Assembly: GCA_905250055.1 (NCBI GenBank)
Contig: CAJNOF010001387.1
Coordinates: 1 to 20,578 of the forward strand
Length of the DNA: 20,578 bases
Direction of reading: 5' to 3'
From: Rotaria sp.
Lineage: Eukaryota
A program made the translations under genes and the position numbers. Positions 627-19,151 of the stretch are shown in pieces; position 1 is the first letter of the stretch; each line of letters opens with the position of its first letter. Below the pieces are notes generated by a model. The model ran no database searches and had not been told where the DNA came from. It worked only from the letters and a program-made list of their open reading frames with translations.

Positions 627-843
627 CACATTTCTATACTACTTTTCTTCTCTTTTTATCAAGCAGCAGATGAATGTATGAATCATCAAAATTTATAATG
701 CTAGTTTTGATACGATTTCACTCTAAAAGTGAAGCACAGACAATATTTATAATATTTTCTTTAAAGATATTAGTCAAGACGAAGGATAACAACTATAACG
801 ATTACATTCGTAGATTGGTTAGAAAGTTTTTGATTATTTTCAG

Positions 844-3800
844 ATGAAGTCGACTGCAGCATCGACTTCATTGTCATCACCATTCAATGGAAAAACTATT
901 GTACTTGAACTTGGTCGTGAAATTAGTTTTAAAGCTAAACAAGAATTAATCAAATATTTACAAGAACAACAAGCACATATTTCATATATTCTTACAGCTA
1001 GTGTATGTTTTTGTTTTATGTGGGATGAAGATGTCACTACATCTCAGTATTTTTAGACTGACTACGTTTTGATCACAAATAATGTAGATAACTATAAGAC
1101 ACGTCGTGCAAAACAACTTGGATTACCACTAGTTAATATTGAATATGTTTATGAATATCGTCGTTTACCACCTGGTCAAACAACGATCGATATAAACAAA
1201 TTTATCATGAAGTCAGTGGAAGATCAAGAAAATTTTACTAACACTGGTACTATATCCGTCATAGGTATGTATCTATCATATTTTTCAATCATATTTAAAA
1301 TGTTTATTTATTAGGACCTCGAGCTAATGCAATCAAAATCAATAAACTCGATTTAACTAAAATTAAAATTTGGAATTCAGATGATGCTAATTTACCTTGT
1401 TTCGATGAGTTAACACATTGTGAAGTTGCAAAATGGGCTATTTTTAAAGTATTGTTTTATTTAGTAGCTTTTGTTCTATCATACATATGACATTTATCAT
1501 AGGAAACGAATGATAATTCAGATGTGTACTTTGCACTTGAACTTCAAGTCATTCCTGAACAATACTATGATCGAACAATGAATGATTATCGAATACGATT
1601 TCGTTATGAAAAACAAACAATTATTAATGATGGACAACAAAAAAATAAAAAAGTATTAATACAATATGCATTCACTGATGATTCCTATGAACAACAACAA
1701 TTGTTTTCTACGTATTATTATCGAGTAGCTACAATGCCACGTGTTACACGAATTCGTGAGATGTTACCTGATAAATTAGGATCAAAACTATTGTTACGTG
1801 TATGTAAAAGAATAATTTTTTTTTTCATCTAAAAAACAATTAGTTTTAGTCTTTATTTACTCATCGTATCGATACACAAATACTTGATGAAAATGTCGGT
1901 CAATTAATCGAATCAATATGGTTAGAATCGATTGGTGATTTGAATAAAATGTTGAGCGTAGCGCCTGAATCAATCACTCTTAAAACAGTATATTTATTCA
2001 TTTTTCTATATTTAAATTCATTTTATTCTTTAATTATAATATAGATTATTGAAGCTGAAGCTGCATTACTTGAATTGAAAACAACGAATGATCCTGCTAC
2101 TGCACTTCGTTTCTATTCACTCATTCCTCATCGATCACAATATAATGTTGATCTTATAAAAAATCGTCGAGCATTAACAGAAAAAATTGATTTATGTCAA
2201 GTATGTATTATTTTATTCAATAGTTAGAAATAATCATTCGTTTGTTCAGATGCTTCGAGATATGCTCACAGTAAACGAATTAACAAATTGGAATGTTAAA
2301 GCACCAATCGAAGCCAAATATCGAGCATTAAAATGTCACATTGAAAATATCGATAGTTCAACACTAGAATTTAGAAATATTACTGAATTGATTCAATCAT
2401 CAACAGACAGGTAAGAAAAAAAAATAAAAGTTGTTTTTATAATGATAGGTTTATTCATTAGTGGTGAACAAATTGTTATTCATCAAATATTCAGTGTAGC
2501 TAAACAAACAGATGCAGTAAATTTTTGTACATCTATATCAAATCAACAGCAATTATTTCATGGATCAAAATATGCAAATTTTCTTGGAATTCTTTCACGG
2601 TAAAAAAAAATTCATTTCAATTTCTAAAACTAATAGAATTATACATATTCAGTGGTTTAGCAATGCCAAAAATGGTAGTAGAAGACTTAGGTGTCACACG
2701 TACTGATATAGGTTGTCTTGGTTATGGACTTTATTTTTCTGATTCTGCTTCAACATCTTTAAAATATACAACAGCAAGTACAACACGACCTGGTAGACGA
2801 TTGTTATGTATTTGCCAAGTAGCACTTGGTGAATCGGCTAATTATTATTCATTTGCACCAACTCTAGTCAAACCTCCTGATGGTTTTCATAGTACACATG
2901 GAGTTAAACGAATCGAAGAAAACAATTCAATGTTTATTGTAAGTAGATTGTAGAGAAAAAATTTCTTGTTAGTTTATATATCTGATTGAGAGAGAAAGAA
3001 AAGGTATGGTTTTTGCTTAGATTTAAATGACTCATATTAAGTTACACGACAAAAATTTGACAATTAATCTTCATTTCAGACTTTTTATCATTAATAATCT
3101 AACTTTAGGATAATGAATATGCAATCTATCAACTTGATCAACAACGTTTACTCTCTATTGTCGAAGTTTCATGGATACTACATGATAATTTAAATATTGA
3201 ATTAGAACGATTGCCAATTATTCATCATCAACAACATGCACTACAATTAAGTGAACATGGTAATAAGAATTAAGTAGTTTTTTATTAAAATGAAATTCAA
3301 TTTGATTATCTCTTATGTTCTAGACGAAGTTCCAATGATAATTGAAGATGAAGTTATTGAAATCGCCGAACAAGATTATGGTTTAATAAATCCATCATCG
3401 GGAAAACTTGTACCACTTAAATCATTTCATATTCGTGCTCAAATTATTGATACTACTGTTGAAGTAATTATATTAAATTTTTTTATTATTAGAGTCATAT
3501 TGTTTTTTTTTTTTTTCTAACATAAAAAGGTTGTTCTCTATCAAGTTTATCATAATACAAGTTCAATACCAATTGAAGCTAAATATGTATTTCCTCTTGA
3601 TGAAAATTCAGCTGTATGTGGTTTCGAAGCACATATCAATAATAAAGTAATAAAAGGTGTTGTCAAAGAAAAAGAACAAGCTAAAAAAGAATATCGAGAA
3701 GCAATTGAACAAGGACATGGTGCTTATTTGATGCATCAAGAACAAGCACAAGTATTTAGTGTAGCTGTTGGTAATTTACCAGCAAATAATGAAGTCATTA

Positions 3801-6800
3801 TTAAAATAACTTATGTTGCCGAATTAGAAATTGAAAATGGTGAAATTATATTTCGTCTACCAGCTAAAATGGCATCATGGCAATCGAAACAAGCACTCGA
3901 AAGTAAAGATCAATCAATCGTACGATCAATTGGTATTGCCGATGAAAAAGTTGAATTTAGTTTCAAAGCATCAATTCGAATGCCATATGAAATAATTAAA
4001 TTATTTTCACCAACACATCATCTTCGACGAAAATTAACTGATTGTATAGCAATGATTGAACTTATTGATAATGTTTTACTTGATCGAGATTTTGTTCTTT
4101 CGATAACACTTAAAACTGCTAATCTACCTCGATTATCAATTGAATCATTATTATTAGATAATGAAAATCAAACAACAATAACATCGAATAATAATGAATC
4201 TCAAGCATGTATGCTTACATTTTATCCACGATTTGAAACATTAACAAAGTCAAACGAACAAGTTGAACTTATTTTTATTATTGATGTATCCAATTCAATG
4301 GATGGTAGTCATGTACAACAAGCTAAACAAATAGCTCATTTATTTCTTACAAATTTGAAAGTCGACGATGGAAATACATACCTTAATATAGTTACATTTG
4401 GATCAGGTATATACAATGCTAATCTATAGAATTATTCTATTGTTTAAATTCGAATTATTTAGATAATGATGAATGTTTCCCAATTTCAACACCAGCAACC
4501 AAAGAAAATCTTGAGAAAGCTAAACATTTTGTTCTAGTTAGTAATTGATTTGTTTTATGTTACTATTGAAATATTATTATGTATTCTTTTATTTTAGCAT
4601 TCACTTGTTCATCGTGGTAATACAGATCTATATGCTGTTCTTCATCGTTATTCACTATTAACACCATTACCATCATCAAAATATGGTCGTCAATTTATTA
4701 TTCTATCTGATGGACATATTCATGATTTTCAATCGATTCTTGTTCTACTCGAAAATCAATCAACTATGCGTCAAGATCGTATATTTACATGTTCAATAGG
4801 TAATGTTGCTAATAAACATGGTTTGAAACAATTAGCAAATGGAGCACGTGGAGGTGGTCTAACGATTGTTTTCGATTCGAATTATCGATCAAAATGGAAA
4901 ACAAAAGTATTAAATCTTCTTGAACAAATTCGACAACCATGTGTAACAAGTATATCAATTGATTGGCATGGAAATCCAGATGAACAACAAAAATTTAATA
5001 TGCAAGCACCAAAAATAATTCGATCATTGTTTAATGGAATGCGATTAAATGTCTATCGATTTATACAAAATTGTCATAAGGCTACATTAACGGCTACTAT
5101 CGATGGACAAGAGTTTGTCACTACAGTATTTAGCAGTTCAACAACAATGACCAAAGGACGTATCTTGCATTGTTTAACGGCTCGAGCAATTATTGATGAT
5201 TATGAAAATGGAATGTTACATGTAGATGAGAGTGAAAATGAATTGATGAAAGTTCAATATAAACAAGATCTCATTGATCTAAGCATAAAACATTCGGTTG
5301 TCAGTACATATACGAGTTTTGTTGCTATCGAAGAACGTGATGCTAAAACAGATGCAAAAACTCTTCAACCAGGTTAGTAAAAAAGTTAAATAAAATAACA
5401 ACCTGGCCTCATAGTTGTCCTATTTTTCCTATATTTCCTATATTTTTGGAATCAGTCCTATAATGTCCTATTTTTTTTTAAATTTTCCTATATTCCTATA
5501 TTTAAAAAAAATGAAGGTTTGTGCCAGAAAAGTTGCATGTTTTGATAATAATAACTATAGATTTATGCGCTTTCAGTAATTTTATTAACATGTGAAACGA
5601 ATTATGTGGATAGTAGTGACAAGTATATAAGTACAACGTGTTTTATTCTTTCTATTCATTGTTTTGATGATTCACTTCTTGTATTTTTTACAACTATTAA
5701 TAGTTGTTTTTTTCTTTGTGCTTTACCCAAAATTCTTTATTAGAAAGATTGATATTTTCTGGATAATGTATGTGGAGTTTAATTATGTTAAATATTGAAA
5801 ATTATAATGAAAGTCGAAACTTTTACTATTCAAAGATATTTTAGATAATATTCAATTGATCAATTATGTGTTTTAATTTTTATTTCATCTCTTATAAAAA
5901 TTAGGATTGTTTCTATTGTACTCAAAAAGTGAGTACACTACTATAATCGGTCTGTATGTCCGTCCGGCCGTTTACACGATAACTATCGAAAAGAGAGTCA
6001 GATTGCGATGAAACTTTCTACATAATTCAGTCTTTAGAATATATCGGTCAAGTTCGAAGATGAGAAGGATCCGTCAAGAAATGGCTGTGCTATCAAAAAA
6101 ATTGTGATTTTTGGCCAGACTATCCCTGAGGGGGGGGGGGTACAGGGATCTTTCGAAAAAAAATTTTTTACTCAGAATTATTCACAAAACACATAAATCG
6201 ACTCAGTTTTTAACGCTGACCCTAAATCTGATGTTACTTTTGAACCAAATCATAGTTTTAATGTACTCAAAAAGTGAGTCCACTATAGAATTGATCAGTG
6301 TTTGCGGCCGGTCAGTTACGTGATAACTTTCGAAGGGAGAGTTAGATCCTGGTGAAATTTTCCACACAGTTCAATTTCATTAATCTTTCGGTCGAGTTCA
6401 AAGATGGATCTGATTGGATGGGCTCGTCCGAGTTATTGTAAAAATGCTGATTTATTCCTATGATTTTCGATGGAAAGATCGTTATATCGTCGCTTTTGTA
6501 AGAAACTTTTCCATCGGAGTTGAATAAAATCCCACCTGAATCATCTATAAGACAAGCTAAATTAAAGAAGAAGTAATTCGAACATTGTCAATGACCTCAT
6601 GAGCCCATAATTCGAGTTTTTTTAATCGGATCAGAGATATGCTACTTCGAGTTTCTCTGGATGAGAGAACTTGAATCTGTACTAGATTTGCTTCAAAGTC
6701 TCATCGGTTGATCAATAACCATTTAAATCAACTTATGACAAAAAATGGTTCTCTTAGAATAATTCAAGACGAGGGGTTCGAATGTGAGTTCTATTCTACT

Positions 6801-7887
6801 GTAAGTCTTTGTGGAGGGGCAGGAGTGAATAGAAGTCGTGTTTATAGAAAAGATGTCTGATGATAATTTTGCTGCTGATGCATTCTAGAATGACTCAATC
6901 TGCCTCATTCACTTTTTGTAGTACACTAAACTTTCGGATAAAATCCGAAGTTTCCGCATTTATTTTTTGACATTGATTCAAATTGTTTTTTTTGAAATAA
7001 ATTATGTGATATGCATATACATATATATATATGTATAGAATTTTATTCAAAACTGATGTCCTATAAATATCCTATATAGGAATAGATGATCCTATATAAA
7101 TGGCGTTTTAAAATCCTATATATTCCTATATGTTTACAAAGTGTCGCTACGAAGCCAGATAACAACTAATCGCTATCAGCAAACACAAAGATAATTGCTT
7201 TATTCTATTTATCTCAGGATACATTTTTTTTCATGCTATTCGTGCTTTTCAAACTCTTTTGATGAAAATTTTGATAAAGAAATTGAACTATGTAATTACT
7301 ATCTATTATAGGTGTTCATCTTCTTGATGTTATGCATGATCGAGATGTTGACTTATTACCATACATAGGATGGGATGGTAATATATCAAATTTAGATATA
7401 ATCAAACAGAAATTAATCGATGCACGTATTTCACTTGAAAGTACATCAATTCAAAGCAAAAAAGAATCTATAGTTGATATGGAAAAACTTTGTGAAAAGA
7501 TTTCTTATCGAGCAGGTGGTGATGCAAAATTTAATTTGATGATGACTGTCATACGTACGTATCGTTATACATTAAATGAGTATGAAAAAGCAAATGAAAT
7601 CGAAAATAAAATGCAAAGCGGTATGTTATATAATTATAGACAAATATTCATAAATTTTAATTCTAAAAGTTAAATAGATCTTAAAAATGAAATGATCAGT
7701 GCAACAACAGAAGAACGACAAGCACTACAACAACGATGTCAAGCTAATGATTTCATCATCGCCAGTGATGAAAAGTATGTAGAAGACAATAGAGGTGTTA
7801 ATAATAATCATAATAAAATTTCATGTTTATTTATTTTTTTATTGTAGTGAATCATTCGTCGATTTTGATGATACGATAAATGGTTAG
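844..7887 (+). CDS. PARP4: Vault poly(ADP-ribose) polymerase (PARP4/vPARP)-like protein of about 1379 aa in 17 exons, with domain order BRCT, PARP regulatory helical, PARP catalytic, VIT, vWA
   Basis: Exons (phase-consistent; total 4140 nt, which is 1380 codons): 844-1002, 1057-1264, 1315-1448, 1503-1799, 1850-1987, 2045-2200, 2250-2410, 2462-2599, 2653-2938, 3109-3259, 3324-3463, 3530-4406, 4463-4536, 4598-5372, 7312-7620, 7678-7774, 7848-7887 (TAG stop). Donors are GTATGT, GTAAGT, GTAAGA, GTTAGT or GTAATT. All introns are 47-67 bp except the 1.9 kb intron at 5373-7311. Domain motifs read from the translation: BRCT-like FNGKTIVLELG...TDYVLITNNVDNYKTRRAKQLGLPLVNIEYV; PARP helical ALRFYSLIPH; PARP catalytic LFHGSKYANFLGILSRG (H-G-S), GLYFSDSAS (Tyr) and DNEYAIYQ (catalytic Glu as in the YNEY of PARP1); VIT domain VCGFEAHINNKVIKGVVKEKEQAKKEYREAIEQG...VFSVAVGNLPANNEVIIKITYVAELE; vWA MIDAS-like IFIIDVSNSMDG...GNTDLYAVL. 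The exact 3' end is uncertain, since a GTTAGT donor overlaps the proposed stop. Confidence 0.85.
5417..5503. repeat. Cluster of TCCTATAT-like short repeats (left boundary of the intronic insertion)
   Basis: Read directly: gtcctatttttcctatatttcctatattttt...gtcctataatgtcctattttttttt...ttcctatattcctatattt. Confidence 0.6.
5928..6926. mobile_element. MITE or foldback-like internal element of about 1 kb with roughly 15-17 bp inverted termini and a diverged tandem duplication of a roughly 345 bp unit
   Basis: The left terminus at 5928-5949 is tgtactcaaaaagtgagtacac. It is itself a small hairpin (gtactc...gagtac). A direct copy sits at 6263-6284 (tgtactcaaaaagtgagtccac). The right terminus at 6910-6926 is cactttttgtagtacac, the reverse complement of gtgtactacaaaaagtg. 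Units 5928-6271 and 6263-6620 align at about 70 percent identity (ccggccg/ccggtc..gataact[at]tcgaa[ag]gagagt[ct]agat...tgaaa[ct]tt..ttcag..atcggtc[ag]agttc[ga]aagatg). Confidence 0.45.
6130..6140. repeat. Homopolymer G11 inside the intronic element
   Basis: ctgagggggggggggtacaggg is a GC-rich island in otherwise AT-rich sequence. Confidence 0.8.
7011..7036. repeat. (AT/TA)n microsatellite
   Basis: Read directly: atgcatatacatatatatatatgtat. Confidence 0.8.
7058..7132. repeat. Second cluster of TCCTATAT-like short repeats (right boundary), including a palindromic cctatatagg
   Basis: Read directly: gtcctataaatatcctatataggaatagatgatcctatataaatgg...aatcctatatattcctatatg, in the same orientation as the 5417-5503 cluster. 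Confidence 0.6.
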
Positions 7888-8617
7888 TGTAGATATTTGA
7901 TCTACTACCAAGTCAATTAACTAAAAGCAGAGCACTAATCTTGAACCTTTCGTATATCTTAGTATATAAGAAACTTTATTAAAGAGCAAATTGAGAGATA
8001 CAATATTCAATTCCATTCTTGAGATTTCACCTTTTGAATCAGTATATAGATGAAGCAACACTTTTAATGTTACTCAAAAGGATCTATTGATCTTTGAGTA
8101 GGAACTTATTTCGACTGAAAATCACCTATGAGAGTATATTTAATTTATTTTATCATATGCCTACTCTAGAATTAACTTTCTATTTAAAAAGAAAAAAAAA
8201 CAATGATAAAATTTATTAGTTTAATGGATTTTCTGACGTATTCTTCAAAATATGTTAAAATTTTGCTTATCTCATTGAGTTCAGTTCAAAAGTTCAAGAT
8301 AAACTTAAATTAAAATATGATTTTCAAAAAAATGATAGCTTTTTCTAATTTTTATGTTTAAAAAATACCTTAAACTACTTAACAGTCAATATTCATTCAA
8401 TCTCGTTAGTTCTATTTAATTATTTATGAATTCAAAGTAATATTTTACATTATTTTTCTAAAGTATTAGTCTTTTGTTACATTAATATATATGATTAAAT
8501 CTCATTATTTACATTTCTTTCATAGATATATATGTATATGAACAAATTTAATTTTAAAATAAGAGTTTGATTTCGTAGTAGAGATACAAACAATTTTGAC
8601 AAGTTTTACTTTTCAAT

Positions 8618-8958
8618 ACATATGGACGTGGGCAACCGACATGGTATCCCATTTTGATTCAGTTCTATAGTGAGGATAAAATATGCTAATGTCCGGGTCA
8701 TATGAGAGAGGATTCAAGATAATCTTGGTTTGGCTTGAACAACACCATGATTTACCGTTAGAATAAAGATGTAAAGCTAGAAGCTTATAGTGTTAGCTGA
8801 TAGCTTTTCTCGATTATTCTAACGATAAAATATGGTGTTGTTCAGGTCATACCAAAGTTATCTGGAATCCTTTCTCATATAACCCGGACAATAGTATGTT
8901 TTCTCCTCACTATAGGACTGAATCAAAATGGGATACCATGTCGGTTGCCCACGTCCAT
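8618..8958. repeat. Long near-perfect inverted repeat (hairpin or foldback) of about 340 bp, centred near 8785 (agctagaagctt)
   Basis: The outer arms atatggacgtgggcaaccgacatggtatcccattttgattcagttctatagtgagga (8620-8677) and tcctcactataggactgaatcaaaatgggataccatgtcggttgcccacgtccatat (8904-8958) are reverse complements with 1 mismatch in about 58 bp. The inner arms (about 90 bp each) are about 85 percent complementary. The structure ends about 60 bp upstream of the ATG at 9020. Confidence 0.85.
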
Positions 8959-9019
8959 ATATATGTTATAATTAATTTAATGTCCAAATTAATTACTGTA
9001 TATTTTTCATTAAGAGAAA

Positions 9020-12000
9020 ATGATACTGAACAAAATGTATGAAGATAGCTCACCAATGATATCCGACGGCGACGCAGAAGAGGAAGAAGGAGACGATATG
9101 GGTTTTGGCTACTTCGATGACATGCCACAGTCTTTTTGCTCAATCTCTCGTAAGTTTTACATTTGATATGATATACGATCTAAAAGAAAAGGATATTGAT
9201 ATATATATATATAGTAGACATTTAATATCATTCTTCTTTTATTACATCTCATGAATATTAAACAACACAAAATATATATTGAGTTAATCATTTAGGTTCA
9301 CATCCATATAAATATATTTTAATGTTGCTTTTTAAAAAAATCAATCTAGAGAGTATATTATTATATAATATTTAATGACAATAATTGAATCTCAATATAC
9401 TGATTTCGTGGAGAAACTGGAAGTGATATTTTGATGTTTAGAAATAAAAAACTTGAATTCTGTTTCAGAGCAACAAATATTCTTATCATAATTTCATGTT
9501 CAACAATCAGTTTCGATATTCTGTATTTTTCTTTTAGAAATGAAGGCCGGAGGTCCAACAATAGAATCCGTCGACGAGGCGGAGGATATGCGCTTCGACT
9601 TATTTGGTATGCATACATCAACTATAGTATTTTTTACAGAAGTATCTGATGTGCTATTGAGATTTTATCAAAGAAGATTAAACAAGAAATTTGAAGTATT
9701 GAGAGTAGAAACTTGTATGACTTGATCAAGATCGTGACAAACGTTATTGATATATGAATACAGATCATATATTAGTAATAGCTTGCTACGATATATCAAA
9801 ACTTCTTTATTATTAATATTGCAAGAGATTTATGAAGAAGTTATTTGTATCCACTATAGGGGTCTAAAAAATAAATCAATGATCGTTTATCTATTTCAAT
9901 ATATAATCTTTTCATCGATGACTGAAGCTCACTCAGGAATCAAAAATTTATAATAAATTAGTTACTTGTTTCTATATATAATTCTACTTATTTCATATTT
10001 GGAATGCAACTATTCCTTTTAGAGTACATGCCTGAGCAAGAACCGAGTTCAATATCAATACAAGAAGCGTCGGAATTAATAGAGTCAGACAAACGAGTCG
10101 ATGATATGGATTGGAGTGTTTTGGACACGATGGATGAGTCCTCCATTGTTTATCCCCGTAAGTAATACAACTTCTATTATAATAAGATCCTGTCATAGTT
10201 TCGTCTAAACGAGACATTTTTTTTTTGTGAAAATTTGCGCATAAAACATTGTTATCGATCGAAGCAATTTCTATGCTAAATGTAATCAAAAATTACAGTT
10301 GATTAATAGAATAAGTTTGTTCTTTCATAATTTAAAAAATTTAATTTTTAAAATTTCACAATAAATCACGGTAATGCAACAGCAATGATTCAGAGAAAAA
10401 TCATTGTACTCAATTTGAATGACATAAATTGATCTTTAAAATTAAAGTCTACTCAAATATCTTGCATAAAAAGTTATTGAACTTCTTTTCGGCTAGATTA
10501 TCAAGCACTATATCTTTAATAATTCCATATCATTTATTCAGACCCAACATATTTCGGCAAAAAATTGCTCATCGTACTAATTTTGTTGTAATATTTTCTT
10601 TATAACTCGTAGTAGTTGTCTTTAGTGAAAAAAAAGTGTTTAATTTTGAACTGCTATGAAGCTATAACTGGGAATTGATTTTTAGCGAAAGAATATCGAT
10701 TACAATTCGCATCAATAATAAATTTTCCGGAAGAACAATCGTCTGTGCCACATATACCTGAGTTACGCAGCAGAGATAGTGTTGGAGGTAGTGATTTGTC
10801 TTATGCACGATTCACCGATACGCGTAAGTCTCCTTTAATGGATTATAAATTGGCTACTATAAAAATCATTTCAGGTGCTGATGAAGAAGTTTCCATGAAA
10901 ATGAAAGAGAGTGAGAACATAGAGAAGATCGCTAATGGCATTATATTTATTTCATAATATTCTTTTTATAGAACCTGTGCCTGCACCACCACCACCACCA
11001 CCACTATTTGCATCAACAACAATGGCTCCCCAACTATCAACACATACTACTATGAAGCAAGCGTCTGTATTTCCTGTAGTATATAATGTAATCATTAGCA
11101 TTTCCTATTAGATTGCCGACTAAAGGAAGACTGCCAAAACCATCTTCAGCAAAAATATCTATGTCTGAATCATTGATAAGACCTCTTGGTAGCATCAACT
11201 ATTCTATGGCTCAACCTCAAGGTAAAACCTAAATTTTGATCTACCAATGCTTATATTCACTTTTGATGCCATATAAATTCTATTTATGTTCGGATTTCTT
11301 GAAACTGACTGTTTATTAACAAATTATCTAAAATTATGACTACGCCCAAACTACAAAAGAGATTAATTTTTTAATGATGTTTTTTGTTTTTTTCAAGTGC
11401 ACATGAACTAATCGAACGTATTTCATGTTTTTTTTTTGTCTTTGGAATTGAACTTGAATTGACAGAATAATGATTTCTATAAGACATCTTACCACTCGCT
11501 GTTCAGTGCTTATGTTGATCAAAATTATAACATTTAGAATTTTTCCTATAATAGAAAATATAATAAACTTGGCAGAAAATGCATTCATAAAATACAAAAA
11601 AGAGAAAGTCAAAGTTTCAAATAACTTAAGAAATAGATCAAAGAAATGTCTTCGTCTTTAGTACTTAAAGAAAAACAAATTAGTAATAAAAAAAACTATG
11701 TAAGATTTGCATTGACAAATAATGTATCGATTTACATATCTTTTTTAACGTAAATACAAAATCAATAATTAACATGACAGATATTTCTTTGAAACCGAAA
11801 TTTACTTCGTTCACATATACCTAGACATTTATTGACCGAAAAATTTCACACGTTAAATTTAAAATGTTCAAAAATTTTTGCAGTTAAAAAACAAAAATTG
11901 AATTTTGAACATCAGCACTTTTTTCTTGTTTTTCCTCAGTGTCAAAGACTTTACAGTACAGTGACATTATCCCTAGAAAATATACTGCGTTAAGGGTACC

Positions 12001-14499
12001 CAAAAAAGTACCCTGATACCAGTATGTCACAGGAACTTTTAGGTACCAAAGTACTTGTAGGTACCTACAGGTACTTAAGTGGTACTTTGGCAAGTACCCT
12101 GCTGGAAAATACACAGTAATTGGATACCTCAAGGTACTGATCAAGTTCTGAATTGGGTACCATTGTATAGTATTTCTAAGTACCATGTTACCAAATTTTC
12201 AGTATCCCAGGATCGAACCTGATCTTTGACTCTCTAAACGTTTTCTTTTTCTTGAGATATTTTACTGAATTTTTTTTAAATTTTATTCAACTTAATTTTT
12301 TTATTCAATTTTAGTTCTTTTATTCAATTTAATTCTTTTTATCCAATTTAACTTTTTTCAATTCTAAACACTTATCAGATGCTATGTCGGGATCCGACTT
12401 GACTTGAGTTGATCGTAGACCACTTCAGGATAGTCCAATCTTAATTTACGACCAAGCTCGGCATTTTCTCCACTAAGAAATAGTCAAGAAATAATTTAGA
12501 AAAAAATTAGTATGAAAATAGATTAATTTCTTATGATTTATCGAGTTGTTTATATACAGTCATGCATAAAAAAGAAAGCGGTGAACGAATAGTTGCCACA
12601 CAGAACGCGACAAATTTCAGATACCTTGTCGAGCTTTCCTCAGTAAAGTTATAGACTTGAGTATCCATGCAGGTACTTATTCAGTAAATGTACTTTTACC
12701 GGTACCCCAAACAGTACCTACGTCAGTAAAATTACTGAGAATTTTCAAAGTACCTTTACTGGGTACCCTACTAGAGCTTTCTCAGTACATGGGTACCCTG
12801 AACTCAGTAATTTCTCTAGAGATATTACAAATACAAAAATGAATTTTCTACATGCTTGATAAATGTTTTCAAGAATTGTATCGTAATACATGAAACATTA
12901 AAAAAAATGAGTTTACTGATTAAATACCTCTTTTTTTTACTTTGTCCTTCTCAATATATTTGAATGAAATTCTATTAGAATCTATCAGTCGTTCTCTTTT
13001 AGTTGGGGCTTTAGCTGACCCCTACTATATGTACTATTCACCTGGTGCTAATTTACCGCCTATTTCTCGTAAGTTACAGTTAGAATGATATTTATTTATT
13101 TTTATTTTTGTTTGATATCATGAGATTTCTAATCAATTCAATATGGCATGAATTCATTTAGAGTCAACAACTGTTGGTACTGCTCCTCTACCACCTTTCC
13201 CACGAATGCCTCCACCACCACCTCCTCCACGAATGCCTCCACCACCTCCTCCACCATCTTTTCCACAAATGTATTCATCATATGCTCCACTGCCTCAAAA
13301 ATCAACAGTAGCATCAACAACGTCATTCTCACAAGGTGATTATTACCAACAGACTTCATTCGATAGAAACATCTTACAACTAAGTAACAGTAGAAGTTTC
13401 ATTTATTCATATCTATATCAGTTTTATTTTTCAGTTAAATTTCCCCATATTTTATTTTTATTTATTATCTTCTTTGAAAGTTAAACAGTTTTATGCATCA
13501 AAGAAAAATAGTATAACAAATATGTTAACATATGTTGAAGATTTCAGAATAGTGTTAAGTACTTAAAAATATAAGCAAAATACATATATTTCATTATATT
13601 AATTCGTTTCAAATCTATGATACTATCATTTTCAATATTTCTAAGGTTCATTCACTAGTCTTTTATGTTGTTAGCCAAACATTGCAATTAAATGTTTTAC
13701 TAACAAAAGAAAAGATCACTATAATGAATGTTGAATTAAGTATTCATTAGATTTCACCTATTTTTTCATTCTTGAGAACTGCAGATATGAATGCATGTGT
13801 AAAATTAGCCAAATGACTCTTTAATTGAATAATAACCGCAGAAACTAAATCCTCAAAGTATAAACTCGTGTTCAAGACTAAATTGGAGCAAGCTTACTAT
13901 TTGAGTGGTCACTTATAAAACTACTTTTCCTTTTGCAGCTCCTCAAATGGAACTTCCAAACGCACTTCAAGCACAATCATTGTTACTAGACGAGTCAGCA
14001 GCTCTATATGGTAGTGAAGGTAGTCGTATGGAATCTTCAGCGACACAAACAACAACAACAACAACAACAGCAATGGCATTACATCCTTGGGCAAGTACTA
14101 GTAAGTCTCATTCCCTATGAATTTCCTGGTTATCTCTGTGAATATAATATGAAGGTGGAAAAAGTTTGCCACGTAGTGCTCAACATGGCAAATCAATGAT
14201 TGTTGCCAAGAAATCACAAACTTCAATGGATGGTAAGTTAGTTGAGATCATTTATTTATTTACTCTAAGTTCTTCTCTACAGATGAAGAGAGATGCGATG
14301 AGCGAATTGATATGAAACGCGGTGCTTCCATGAAAAAGTCATTCGCCTTCATCGGAGTACGTACATTCATATGGAACCCTTTAATGAATATTTCGTTTTC
14401 TTCTAGAAGAAAGTGGACAACAGAAAGATGAGAAGTGGTCTTTTCAACGATGGAGAATCGCATTTTACAGCTTTTAAGAAGAAAACAATCACACCGTAA
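9020..14499 (+). CDS. Multi-exon gene encoding an acidic, proline-rich low-complexity protein with no recognisable domain; it may continue by splicing into the Hsp70 SBD exons that start at 14557
   Basis: Proposed exons: 9020-9149 (MILNKMYEDSSPMISDGDAEEEEGDDMGFGYFDDMPQSFCSIS), 9538-9606 (MKAGGPTIESVDEAEDMRFDLF), 10023-10157 (PEQEPSSISIQEASELIESDKRVDDMDWSVLDTMDESSIVYP), 10686-10823 (SVPHIPELRSRDSVGGSDLSYARFTDT), 10972-about 11062 (PVPAPPPPPPLFASTTMAPQLSTHTTMKQ), 11112-11221 (LPTKGRLPKPSSAKISMSESLIRPLGSINYSMAQPQ), 13003-13068, 13162-13335 (alternatively to 13383; FPRMPPPPPPPRMPPPPPPPSFPQMYSSYAPLPQK), 13939-14100 (poly-Thr from (ACA)n), 14155-14232, 14283-14356, 14407-14499 (TAA). Donors are GTAAGT, GTATGC or GTACGT, and phases are consistent except at the 5/6 junction, which needs a weak GTCTGT donor at 11063. 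The 5' introns are unusually long (390-1780 bp). Whether this is one gene, and the exact boundaries, are uncertain. Confidence 0.5.
11993..12195. repeat. GTAC/GGTACC-rich diverged repeat block in the 1.78 kb intron (copy 1)
   Basis: gggtacccaaaaaagtaccctgataccagtatg...ggtaccaaagtacttgtaggtacctacaggtacttaagtggtactttggcaagtaccctg contains more than 12 GTAC cores, several of them as the palindromic GGTACC. Confidence 0.6.
12670..12810. repeat. GTAC/GGTACC-rich diverged repeat block (copy 2, same orientation as copy 1)
   Basis: ccggtaccccaaacagtacctacgtcagtaaaat...caaagtacctttactgggtaccctactagag...catgggtaccctgaactcagtaat. Compare ggtaccccaaacagtacct here with ggtacccaaaaaagtaccct in copy 1. Confidence 0.55.
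14046..14069 (+). repeat. Coding (ACA/AAC)n trinucleotide microsatellite giving a poly-Thr run
   Basis: acaaacaacaacaacaacaacaacag translates in frame as TQTTTTTTTA. Confidence 0.8.
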
Positions 14500-14556
14500 A
14501 TTTTAATTTATATCACGTCAATACTTAAGATCAATTATTATTTTATTAAAATTTAG

Positions 14557-16099
14557 CATTCAATCATCAATAGAACTATGTTCAATAGTTGACGAATCTG
14601 TAGATAATATCCTTCTTCTCGATGTTTGTCCACTTGGTCTTGGTATTGAAGATATTCATGGTCAAATGCACACATTTATTCGTCGTAATACTACCATTCC
14701 AACATGTACACAATTCTATCCAATATTCACCAATGCTTATGCCTATCAAATAACAGCTACTATTCGTATATTTGAAGGCGAACACAATCTTACAAAATAC
14801 AATGTATGCATATGCAGTTTTCGCAATTTAATAGCTTCTTTTTTTTATTGTAGAATTTTTTGGGTGAGTTTAACCTTTGTGGTCTGACGAGTAATTATGC
14901 TGCTCAGACACTTGAAATCTCTATTCGAATGGATCTTGATGCTAATGGTATACTTCATGTCGACGCTGAAGAAACACGTTCGGGTGCCAAAGCTTCCTTT
15001 ACTATCACATCTAATGATCATCAAAGTATAATAATTCTATAATTATTTGATATCGTAATCAAATCGTATTTATATTTATGTAGGATTAACAAAAGATGAT
15101 ATTGAGCGACATATTACATATGTTAACAGTGATCCAAGTTTTGCAGCTAAATCAGGTGAGTCCGAAAAATATAAATGATATTTAATTATTATTATTATTT
15201 TCTAGTTTATGATCGCAAATCCAATGATCCATTGTACAAGGTTTCTACTATGACATTTTTTTTTCTCAGTTCAGCCATTTACTTCTCGGATATTTTTTTA
15301 GCTCGATGGTGAAACTGAATCTGTACTACACAATTTTTCTGGTGAAACCATGGATTCATGTGGTAATTTATTAATTGTCTTTATAGAAAACGATAATATT
15401 TCAATTTAGATCAAATGTCTAACGCACCTCTTCTTAGTAAACTGAAAGATGTTCGATCTTCTGCAACCATGATTGAAGAACTTTTCAAACTTCAATCTAA
15501 GGTTACATGATTTTGAAATTTCATTAAATATTTATTGTTTTGTATTTAATTCGAATATAGGATGGATCGTTTACATTGAATAAAGATTTAGCTGATGTAT
15601 TTCAAATTGATGTTGGTACTTTTAATGGTCTTGAAAATTACTTACGTGAACAAGGTTTCAACTCATTCGGTACTGTTTAATAGTTTATTATTAACCTATA
15701 GAAATATGAGATTTTTCGTTCTTTTTAGCATTGAATATACGGAATGAAATACTTTGTTTAATTGGCACAGGTGTTATTCTTATTTGGCTTACTCTTCAAA
15801 CACTAGTGTCACAACAAAATACATTTCAATTTTTATTTGATATTGAACAAATGAAAGTAATCAATGGTTTTTTTTTGTTAATTTTTCATTTCCTACATTG
15901 ATTTCTATATATATTGAAGATTCATCTTTGCAATCATTTACCTGCTAATGTGAACCATCAAATAAATAAAGCGATCGAATTCTATCAACGAACAAATCAA
16001 CGTATTGACCTGTATTGCCAACAATTAGAACTAAGTGATTCATCATGGAATATGTTTATTCAGCGTTTACTTATTGGCGTCGATCGCAGCCGCAGCTAA
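14557..16099 (+). CDS. Divergent Hsp70-family substrate-binding domain (SBD-beta and start of lid) plus a novel C-terminal region; no nucleotide-binding domain present
   Basis: Exons: 14557-14803, 14854-15025, 15084-15155, 15206-15240, 15302-15362, 15410-15501, 15561-15654, 15771-15856, 15920-16099 (TAA). The translation SIVDESVDNILLLDVCPLGLGIEDIHGQMHTFIRRNTTIPTCTQFYPIF...IRIFEGEHNLTKYNNFLGEFNLCGL...EISIRMDLDANGILHVDAEETRSGAKASFTITSNDHQRLTKDDIERHITYV lines up with canonical Hsp70 [37 protein letters not shown]...[23 protein letters not shown]...IEVTFDIDANGILNVSA...[20 protein letters not shown]. The first in-frame ATG (14666) falls inside the beta-sandwich, so a separate start is unlikely. 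The acceptor at 14556 is in phase 2 and matches a GTAAAT donor at 14496, which overlaps the TAA of the upstream gene. Downstream exons are phase-consistent but use weak donors (GTTTCT, GTTACA, GTTTCA). Confidence 0.65.
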
Positions 16100-17190: not shown

Positions 17191-17246
17191 GGTTCGACTT
17201 TTCTGTTGTGTTTTTCATTTCACTTTATTTCCAAGTAAGTACAGTT

Positions 17247-19151
17247 ATGGATACAAATCAACAACAATACGATGAACAATTACAAATTCTTCAAGAACGT
17301 TATCCACAAACATCAAAAGACAAATTAATTCGTCTTTTACAACGACATAATAAAGATGTCGATCAGGTATATAATAGAGGATTTTTAGTTTTGAATTTAC
17401 AATACATTTCAAAGCCCGCTAATACCTCCCATGCGGGTGAATGGAGGTTGCTCAATACATATATATCGAGCGTAAAACATTTTGAAATAATTTTGTTATT
17501 TAGATTCAAATTTATCTGTTTATTTATTAACATTTGTAAATATAAATATGAATATTTTGATTAGGTTTGTGCACGCCTTATTCAAAAAGAAGATCGTGCT
17601 AATAAACGTAATACACTTGAAACACGTTTCGGAACTGCATTAACAGCATTACAGCAAGAACTACCATGGATTCAATCAATGAGACGCATTCGCTTATTGA
17701 AAATGATGGAGCGTTTCAATGGTGATATTGAACAAGTTCGAAAATTTTTACAAACTTCATTAGAAAGACATCGTAAACATGGTGAAAGTTCGAACGTATC
17801 TAAACTTGAACAACAAGAAGAACTAAAAGCAAAATATGCAACTCAATTAGCTGAATTAAGTGCAGCTGGTATTGATATTAATTGTTCATGTATACTTCGA
17901 CGATTGGAGAAAAATCAAGGTGATATTACTAAGGTAATATATTTCTTTGTATTTCAAAAAATATAATAATACATAATTAAATATCGAAATTCAATAATAG
18001 ATTATGGAAAAAATCTCGCACCGCGCAGCAAAGAAAGAAAAATTAGCAATGCTTGATAAAAAATATACGCATGAAATAGCCCAACTCGAAGCTGATGGTG
18101 TTGTTGTTAAAAATAAACATAATTTAATACGTTTATTAGAAAAAGCGAATGGACAAATTGATGTTGCTAAACAACTTTTAAATGAAAAAAAAGAAAAACA
18201 TGATAAAAAACATCGAGATAAAACAAAAGAAAAAACTGATGAAAAAGATTCAAAATTAAGAAAACGACGTGAATTAAGTGCTGATAATATTAATAATCTT
18301 AAACGACTTCGTTCAGCTGGTGTTCATGGAAATCCAAAAAAAATACTGGCAATATTTCATGAATGTAATCAATCAATTGAAGTGGCAATTGCTCGGAATC
18401 ACGAAGAACAAGAACGACGCCATCAATCTCAACATGAACGAAAATTAGTAAGAATTTATTTTAAACTTAATTCTTTTAATATTTTATTCTCTGATAGAAA
18501 CGCCAACTATTAGCTGAAGCTGAAAATAGTTATATAACAATCAATAATCGTGATGATTGGCCAAAAAATATTGAAAAAGTTTATTTAGATGGAAACAATA
18601 TGATGTTTGTCGTTGATTCTCTTCGTCGTTTATGTTTAAATCGTGCTGGTAAAAAAACTGAACGTGCTTTAGGAGAATTAGCTTCTGCATGGAATGAACA
18701 AATGCATATACAATATGTTGAACTTATCTTTGATTCAACACATCAATTAGATCAAATTGGTACAATTAAAGTTTCAAGTGCTCAACCTAAATATCGAACA
18801 ACTGATGATATGTTAGTTGAAATAGCACGACAAGATGACAATCGTGAAAAAAATAATCGTACCGTTGTTGTAACATCTGATCGAGGTTTAGCTGCACTTG
18901 TAAGTTTATATATATTGTTTGTTTTATTATTTCAAACTTTATTTTTCTGTCCTACTCTGTAGTTACAACGTGAAGGATGTTTATTGGTTAAATCATATCA
19001 TTGGTTTGCACATTGTGTTATGACTTTGGCACCGGATTTGATTGATTTTGAAGAATTAAAAGATAAGACAATAGCAACAACATCAGCAAAAAAGAAAAAT
19101 CGTTATAATTTTGATGAACTTCTCCATCGTATTGCGAATATTGATATATAA
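17247..19151 (+). CDS. Protein of about 508 aa with five tandem UBA/CUE-like three-helix repeats followed by a YacP/Rae1-type NYN (PIN-like) ribonuclease domain
   Basis: Exons: 17247-17366, 17565-17933, 18001-18447, 18498-18899, 18963-19151 (TAA). Donors are GTATAT, GTAATA, GTAAGA and GTAAGT, every junction is phase 0, and the total of 1527 nt gives 509 codons. Repeats: DKLIRLLQRHNKDVDQV, RRIRLLKMMERFNGDIEQVRKFL, CSCILRRLEKNQGDITKV, HNLIRLLEKANGQIDVAKQLL, KKILAIFHECNQSIEVAIA. The NYN region KVYLDGNNMMFVVDSLRRL...VELIFDS...RTVVVTSDRGLAAL parallels bacterial YacP LLVDGYNMIGAW...VIVVFDA...IHVATSD. Confidence 0.8.
17415..17448 (+). other. GC-rich interleaved complementary segments (pseudoknot-like) inside the 198-bp first intron of the UBA-NYN gene
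   Basis: cccgc(17415-19)...acctcc(17424-29)...gcggg(17433-37)...ggaggt(17443-48) gives two stems arranged a-b-a'-b'. This intron is 4 times the usual length. Confidence 0.25.

Follow-up and report, generated by a model that had tools for sequence, protein, structure and literature searches.

A long foldback in a Rotaria-like contig

The DNA examined here, a 20.6-kb stretch of contig CAJNOF010001387.1 that we refer to at its full length as the window, has a GC content of 25-36% and short GT-AG introns. For an open reading frame (ORF) with VIT and VWA domains at 3728-4429, the best-matching sequences (80-85% identity) belong to Rotaria species and to rotifer contigs of metagenomic origin, so the window is taken to be bdelloid-rotifer DNA of a Rotaria-like kind. 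The JGI name for the proteins that match this ORF is poly[ADP-ribose] polymerase. A single long gene appears to occupy 800-15000 of the plus strand, encoding PARP, VIT and VWA domains, acidic motifs, polyproline, and a segment resembling the substrate-binding domain of HSP70. The subject of this report is a 349-bp foldback at 8616-8964, most likely situated in an intron of this PARP4-like gene. Its parts, with the observations by which each was delimited, are as follows.

8620-8623: left flank ATAT, candidate for the target-site duplication (TA, ATAT or, with a shift, CATAT); direct reading
8624-8676: left terminal inverted repeat, the near-perfect outer stem (GGACGTGGGCAACCGACATGGTATCCCATTTTGATTCAGT...); mismatch map and 24-mer
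8677-8785: inner left arm, ~80% complementary to the inner right arm; alignment and mismatch map
8786-8794: apical loop or spacer TATAGTGTT, with the symmetry axis at 8790; repeat search and RNA fold
8795-8903: inner right arm; repeat search, alignment and mismatch map
8904-8956: right terminal inverted repeat (...ACTGAATCAAAATGGGATACCATGTCGGTTGCCCACGTCC); repeat search, mismatch map and 24-mer
8957-8960: right flank ATAT, a candidate target-site duplication; direct reading

The foldback consists of two arms of 170 nt each (8616-8785 and 8795-8964) that are 86% complementary and enclose a 9-nt loop, and all other inverted repeats of the window measure 31 nt or less. When the plus strand of 8610-8970 was folded as RNA, its minimum free energy was -242.5 kcal/mol, compared with -81.4 +/- 5.1 for shuffled sequences (z = -31.8), and the predicted structure was one continuous stem. 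The minus-strand RNA gave -225.3 (z = -29.9), and a DNA fold of the hairpin gave -138 kcal/mol (z = -28). The inverted repeat is confirmed as real and far beyond chance. An initial annotation of this DNA had proposed a long foldback here and suggested an RNAfold calculation as a check; the arm lengths, their complementarity, and the single long stem with its z score bear this out.

The mismatch map shows how the two arms are related. Positions 8620-8663 pair fully with 8917-8960, a lone mismatch follows at 8664/8916, and pairing is then complete up to 8676. The outer stem (8620-8676 with 8904-8960) therefore measures 57 bp with 1 mismatch by our count, in good agreement with the 58 bp and single mismatch described before, and one 24-mer of the terminus is matched exactly in both arms. 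The inner arm carries 22 mismatches in 112 positions (~80% paired), together with one indel in the gapped alignment, whereas outer positions 8616-8673 carry 2 in 58, including one within the AT flank (8619; Fisher p = 0.004 for the contrast). Pairing steps (2% vs 20% mismatch) rather than grading along the stem, and the arms are essentially one inverted repeat throughout. The axis of symmetry is at 8790, in the loop, and not at agctagaagctt (8775-8786), where the centre had been placed originally.

The same map bears on the possibility that the palindrome was created during assembly or amplification, for example by a chimeric fold-back read. Whole-genome amplification and long-read libraries are known to yield palindromic joins as artefacts. 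Artefactual fold-backs, however, are perfect copies, whereas in this case 24 of the 170 arm positions are mismatched, an indel is present as well, and the 9-nt centre is asymmetric. Both flanks, moreover, are unique, continuous intron sequence. We consider an artefact extremely unlikely.

Placement within a predicted intron

To place the hairpin with respect to genes, orthologous loci were taken from other rotifers (L001-L007 and L009-L014). The features that define its position are all on the plus strand.

7848-7882, plus strand: conserved mini-exon of the PARP4-like gene, 35 nt (…ESFVDFDDTIN); alignment with five loci
7883-9014, plus strand: predicted host intron of 1,132 nt that holds the hairpin; donor G/GTTAGT at 7883, acceptor tttttcattaAG/ at 9013-9014
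9015-9149, plus strand: next exon (…EKMILNKMYEDSSPMISDGDAEEEEGDDMGFGYFDDMPQSFCSIS), which includes the ATG at 9020; in frame with the mini-exon and with the exon at 9538

The hairpin had been described as promoter-proximal, lying about 60 bp before the ATG at which a distinct proline-rich gene was taken to start, and it might modulate the transcription of that gene. The distance is correct (56-60 nt), the ATG at 9020 does open a 48-codon ORF, and an in-frame stop stands just upstream at 9011-9013. Conserved splice sites point elsewhere. The last strongly conserved exon of the PARP4-like gene (…ATTEERQALQQRCQAN…SDE) is followed, in the six species aligned, by a GTATG/GTAAG donor. The intron that comes next, 60-73 nt long with a pyrimidine tract and an AG end, is common to all six (7775-7847 in the window, 73 nt), and the TAG acceptor of the mini-exon, the 35-nt exon itself and a second donor are conserved between the window and five other loci (L001, L002, L003, L009 and L010). 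The upstream gene would therefore continue past the mini-exon, because a gene that ended there would not retain a donor after its last exon. In the five other loci this second donor reads GTAAGA; the window has the mutated form ATACGA at the corresponding place (7871-7882), and a GTTAGT 12 nt downstream keeps the phase. A shift of the donor to this GTTAGT implies a 4-codon extension of the exon in the window lineage.

Reading frames agree with this arrangement. When 7882 is joined to 9014/9015 (tttttcattaAG/AG, the first possible acceptor past the in-frame stop), translation runs stop-free into …EKMILNKMYEDSSPMISDGDAEEEEGDDMGFGYFDD, and the following junction, from 9149/GTAAGT to ttcttttAG/9538, is also in frame and reads into the ORF …MKAGGPTIESVDEAEDMRFDLFG. 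In L012 the DFDD of the mini-exon and DMGFGLFDD, the counterpart of a motif in the exon with the 9020 ATG, are ~35 residues apart within one uninterrupted ORF (12581-12928). Local alignment of L012 with the spliced model of the window gives a score of 63, where shuffles give 31 +/- 5.7. Similarly, YDFDE…DDDMGFCTFD falls within a single 259-codon ORF in L011, from which further called ORFs extend to the HSP70-like part. The order PARP-VIT-VWA, acidic motifs, polyproline and HSP70-like part is syntenic in the window and in L009-L012.

On the strength of these conserved splice sites, in-frame joins, single-ORF orthologues and synteny, the hairpin is most likely contained in an intron, 1.1 kb long, of the PARP4-like gene. 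Rather than a start codon, the ATG at 9020 is probably an internal codon of an exon, and the "proline-rich gene" is probably the downstream half of the PARP4-like gene. A promoter-proximal role next to a separate gene thus becomes very improbable. The 3′ end of the hairpin is 50-58 nt upstream of the predicted 3′ splice site, which leaves room for a branch point.

The other delimitable introns of the window measure about 50-390 nt, and the sole other long one is at 5375-7310. Compared with its counterparts in relatives, this intron has about 1.5-1.8 kb of extra length, and it contains an insert of ~1.7 kb that resembles a transposable element (TE). The insert is bounded by clusters of a TCCTATA sub-terminal repeat (5414-5510 and 7056-7135), and the intron includes an internal duplication of 157 bp (5906-6062 and 6252-6406, 75% identity).

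Composition and searches for related sequences

The hairpin has a GC content of 37.5%, compared with 23% in its own intron and 20% in the next one, and is compositionally foreign to the intron that holds it. This jump in GC supports an insertion. Neither a second copy nor a solo terminus was found within the window, and Tandem Repeats Finder, run on 8500-9100 with a minimum score of 30, reported no array of tandem sub-repeats. A single match of a 17-mer to a viral contig, in GC-rich DNA, was dismissed as chance.

Each arm had also been said to contain the core of a T7-class promoter, with the suspicion that this was a coincidence. The core CTCACTATAGG is exact in the right arm only (8906-8916, plus strand); the left arm carries CTCACTATAGA (8664-8674, minus strand), which agrees at 10 of 11 positions. 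The full T7 consensus TAATACGACTCACTATAGG (17-23 nt, including the -17 to -5 specificity region) was not found with up to 3 mismatches allowed, and the suspicion was right: the match, confined to the 11-nt core, is a coincidence.

We also weighed the idea that the hairpin is a functional hairpin RNA (hpRNA) or endogenous small interfering RNA (siRNA) locus, or a young microRNA (miRNA)-like one, in which small RNAs produced by dicing of the intronic stem would regulate a target gene or silence related transposons. In the sense orientation of the gene, which is presumably transcribed, the stem is highly stable. [quoted passage not shown] With hpRNA and endo-siRNA loci, and with MITE-derived miRNA genes, the hairpin shares a long repeat able to form intramolecular double-stranded RNA (dsRNA) inside a transcribed region. 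Its stem is far longer than that of an animal pre-miRNA, however, and the miRNA models of Rfam match it only below threshold. Rfam 15 yielded no family at the gathering threshold; the best match, MIR8706, reached 30.2 bits against a required 95 in a structure-only alignment, and the other matches, at 24.5 bits or less, were each under the gathering score of their own family. No sense or antisense match to the arms, and hence no antisense target, was found within the window. Transitions compatible with G:U pairing number 8 vs 4 in favour of the sense strand in the mismatch map, which is not a significant bias, and nothing indicates selection for RNA structure.

A locus of this kind may arise by inverted duplication of a gene fragment, and the coding potential of the arms is relevant in this respect. 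Both arms contain an outward reading frame that stays open over ~55 codons (8797-8958, plus strand, in the right arm). The right-arm translation had no word-sharing homologue in an index of 5.8 billion proteins. A phmmer search of the right-arm ORF against all representatives gave three weak matches (E = 3e-6 to 7e-5), two to nSTAND-WD40 proteins and one to a Big_7/PKD (immunoglobulin-like, or Ig-like) repeat protein, in alignments that span one WD40 unit at 28-30% identity (SGHT..IW..FS.NPD...RT..KWD). The left-arm ORF scores 0.5 bits for this signal, and neither arm ORF matched a Pfam family, the WD40 model included. We judged the resemblance, the only hint of a gene-fragment or hpRNA origin, to be inflated by repeats and probably not evidence of such an origin: it is shared by two unrelated folds, the left arm is blank, and no rotifer parent gene was found. 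Given in addition that the hairpin is not conserved in the nine rotifer loci described below, and that it differs from hpRNA loci in having no conservation, target or parent gene that we could find, a functional small-RNA locus seems quite unlikely.

The insertion site and its orthologues

The junctions of the element read …CAATACATAT/GGACG…CGTCC/ATATATATGTT, and its termini can be given as GGACGTGGGCAACCGACATGG. The flanks, ...ACATAT/ and /ATATATATG, permit a duplication of TA (leaving ends TGGACG…CGTCCA), of ATAT, or of CATAT(G/A), and the empty site expected from them would have the form ...CAATACATAT(AT)ATGTTATAA.... The target-site duplication is ambiguous because the (TA)n site is itself palindromic, making a duplication inseparable from an extension of the repeat.

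In related rotifers, the interval that follows the conserved mini-exon contains no inverted repeat in L001, L003 or L009-L014, and in none of the nine loci under comparison (L001-L003 and L009-L014) is the hairpin conserved at the orthologous position. Because the orthologous interval lacks an inverted repeat elsewhere, the hairpin is, on this comparison, lineage-specific. DNA homology to L001-L003 and L009-L012 ends at ~7881, even by sensitive blastn, the exceptions being a weak alignment between window 9440-9605 and L003 (62%, E 7e-4) and another with a foldback in L002.

The L002 foldback is informative in its own right. It is the 1.5-kb core of a 2,048-bp insertion at 10947-12994, and its principal arm segments (415 and 176 nt) are 95-96% complementary. 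The insertion has short ends of the form TCTC..ACTTTGRCCG and is flanked by a duplication of approximately TAAAATT (7-8 bp), and L001, a related contig from the same sample, has the corresponding uninterrupted empty site at 13615-13623. It probably lies in the same part of the gene as the hairpin, downstream of the same conserved mini-exon. Judged from these two contigs, the L002/L001 pair shows that foldback elements are mobile in the bdelloid group. A second case, an unrelated palindrome of 358 bp that is 83% complementary, is found in L010 at 2048-2405 and is like the window hairpin in size, decay and arm identity (83% vs 86%). The L002 and L010 foldbacks resemble the hairpin in their host group, in their long imperfect arms and in their short centre, but they share no sequence similarity with it. 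The L002 foldback differs further in being internal to a larger element with its own termini, whereas no enclosing outer termini were found for the window hairpin.

Two candidate links to the L002 foldback were set aside. A likeness between the window terminus GGACGTGGGC and GGACGGGGGC of the L002 foldback was dismissed, as the L002 sequence is internal to an element with different true ends. Matches of window 6134-6243 and 8193-8300 to the same foldback, 68-78% over 51-114 nt, are AT-rich and were treated as unreliable. A separate locus, at 2664-4014 of L001, has ORFs with HTH_Tnp_Tc5 and DDE_1 domains and resembles a pogo/Tc5-like transposase; it precedes the PARP4-like gene by a few kb, and no terminal similarity between this locus and the hairpin was found.

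Origin of the hairpin

Could the palindrome have formed in place, with no transposon involved? Repair of a double-strand break by a hairpin-capped or fold-back route, which is plausible in a desiccation-tolerant bdelloid, would produce one, whose centre could later be roughened by mutation. This origin is compatible with the failure to find a second copy in the window, in JGI metagenome contigs or in GTDB genomes, with the lack of an unambiguous target-site duplication, with the palindromic nature of the whole element, which does not consist of termini around an unrelated interior, and with the occurrence of the unrelated L010 palindrome of equal size and decay. Against it, a GC content of 37.5% in an intron of 20-23% GC indicates that the sequence was not copied from its surroundings, and the window holds no single-copy source for the arms. 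The distribution of mismatches is stepwise (2% vs 20%), neither uniform nor confined to the centre, and in the L002/L001 pair a comparable foldback belongs to an insertion that is flanked by a target-site duplication. We regard local formation as possible but unlikely.

We favour, with moderate confidence, the interpretation that the hairpin is the remnant of a MITE or foldback-type DNA transposon inserted in a (TA)n run of the PARP4-like intron. The element is non-coding, with a core of about 333 bp (8624-8956) and an overall length of 333-349 bp. A transposon fits best with the near-perfect termini and degenerate interior, the jump in GC, the non-conservation and the foldback insertions of related rotifers. 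The step in the pairing profile suggests an element whose terminal repeats are conserved and whose interior is looser; in a fresh inverted duplication, decay would be uniform. Of the two classes that the initial annotation had offered, a foldback or MITE transposon and an hpRNA locus, the first is thus retained, and the second is less favoured for its lack of conservation, of an Rfam family and of a target.

Comparison with known elements is in keeping with this assignment. The hairpin is like a MITE in its length, its non-coding content, its near-identical termini, its (TA)n site, its intronic position and its capacity to form a single long hairpin if transcribed, and it has the terminal inverted repeats of one (8620-8676 with 8904-8960, one mismatch). 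Its termini (GGACGTGGGCAACC...) are unlike what we take to be the ends of Tc1/mariner (CAGT / TACAGT), hAT, piggyBac and PIF elements. Like Foldback (FB) elements and the foldback-like insertion of bdelloids, the hairpin is almost entirely a single long inverted repeat whose centre is short. The arms of Drosophila FB elements are composed of tandem sub-repeats, and the elements are flanked by 9-bp duplications; the hairpin has no tandem sub-repeats and its 9-bp flanks differ (AATACATAT vs ATATATATG). MITEs have been detected among unclassified bdelloid repeats (PMC7943196), and a passage of PMC2861651, citing Arkhipova & Meselson 2005, reports a "foldback-like" insertion in bdelloid gene-rich contigs. 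As that passage describes it, the insertion is, like the hairpin, a rare one in TE-poor, gene-rich bdelloid DNA.

Several observations weigh against a transposon. The MITE class is read here from one copy, and multi-copy status is the defining property of a transposon family; two terminal 20-mers had no match in JGI metagenome contigs, and one terminal 20-mer had none in GTDB genome contigs. Because the duplication is ambiguous, no superfamily can be assigned, and the orthologous introns are too diverged for the base-by-base alignment that would define a precise empty site. The WD40 and Big_7 matches, weak but nominally significant, would if real mean that the arms originated from a gene fragment.

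If the element is a transposon remnant, it would have arrived by cut-and-paste transposition, and recognition of the ~57-bp termini by a transposase could account for termini that are near-identical around an interior that differs. Lying in an intron on the sense strand, it would be transcribed within the host pre-mRNA, which would fold into an imperfect dsRNA stem of ~170 bp and so loop the element out of the intron. Such a stem could be diced into siRNAs against sister copies. At the DNA level the element may be inert, and a function for the host need not be assumed.

The host gene and neighbouring repeats

Beyond the intron, the downstream half of the PARP4-like gene carries the following features.

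About 10980 and 13206-13260, plus strand: polyproline tracts of the host gene
14591-15000, plus strand: segment resembling the substrate-binding domain of HSP70

The predicted host protein has an acidic motif, …EEEEGDDMGFGYFDD, at window 9074-9121, and a degenerate second copy, DEAEDMRFDLFG, at 9560-9606. The DMGFG motif is kept as SDDDAGTDMGFGLFDD in L012-L014 (12701-12748 in L012) and appears as the variant DDDMGFCTFD in L011 (about 12800-12830). It resembles SDDDMGFGLFD, which we take to be the tail conserved at the C-terminus of ribosomal P-stalk proteins. A mimic of the stalk tail on a PARP-domain protein could recruit translational GTPases. The presence of this P-stalk-tail-like DMGFG[LY]FDD motif within a PARP-VIT-VWA protein is, in our view, a by-product of the analysis that is more intriguing than the hairpin.

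Farther downstream, at 17200-18520 on the plus strand, consecutive ORFs repeat a unit of ~40 residues of the type LIRLLEK.NG.I..A/V, with copies that include …LIRLLQRHNKDVDQV, …MMERFNGDIEQVRKFL, …LRRLEKNQGDITKVI and …LIRLLEKANGQIDVAKQLL. The unit looks like a small helical domain in tandem.

Implications

Small palindromic relics of DNA transposons are commonplace in introns, and foldback-like insertions have already been reported in bdelloids, so the hairpin carries little weight when taken alone. Its placement corrects a likely error of annotation, in that the ATG at 9020 would be no gene start and the PARP4-like gene would run on through it. It also adds one datum to the view that TE insertions account for the length of the few long introns in compact bdelloid genes.

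A further reading, which we hold to be decidedly improbable, is that the hairpin is an intron-embedded, lineage-specific generator of siRNAs, a recent foldback element that would be co-transcribed with the PARP4-like gene and diced by the expanded RNA interference machinery of bdelloids. If this were true, the siRNAs would either keep sister copies in check or act back on the host transcript, by way of splicing of the adjacent exon or of nuclear silencing of the locus, and here, in an animal, a MITE would be seen while turning into a small-RNA gene. In either case, a 170-bp intronic dsRNA stem would offer a clean test substrate for the Dicer activity of bdelloid rotifers.

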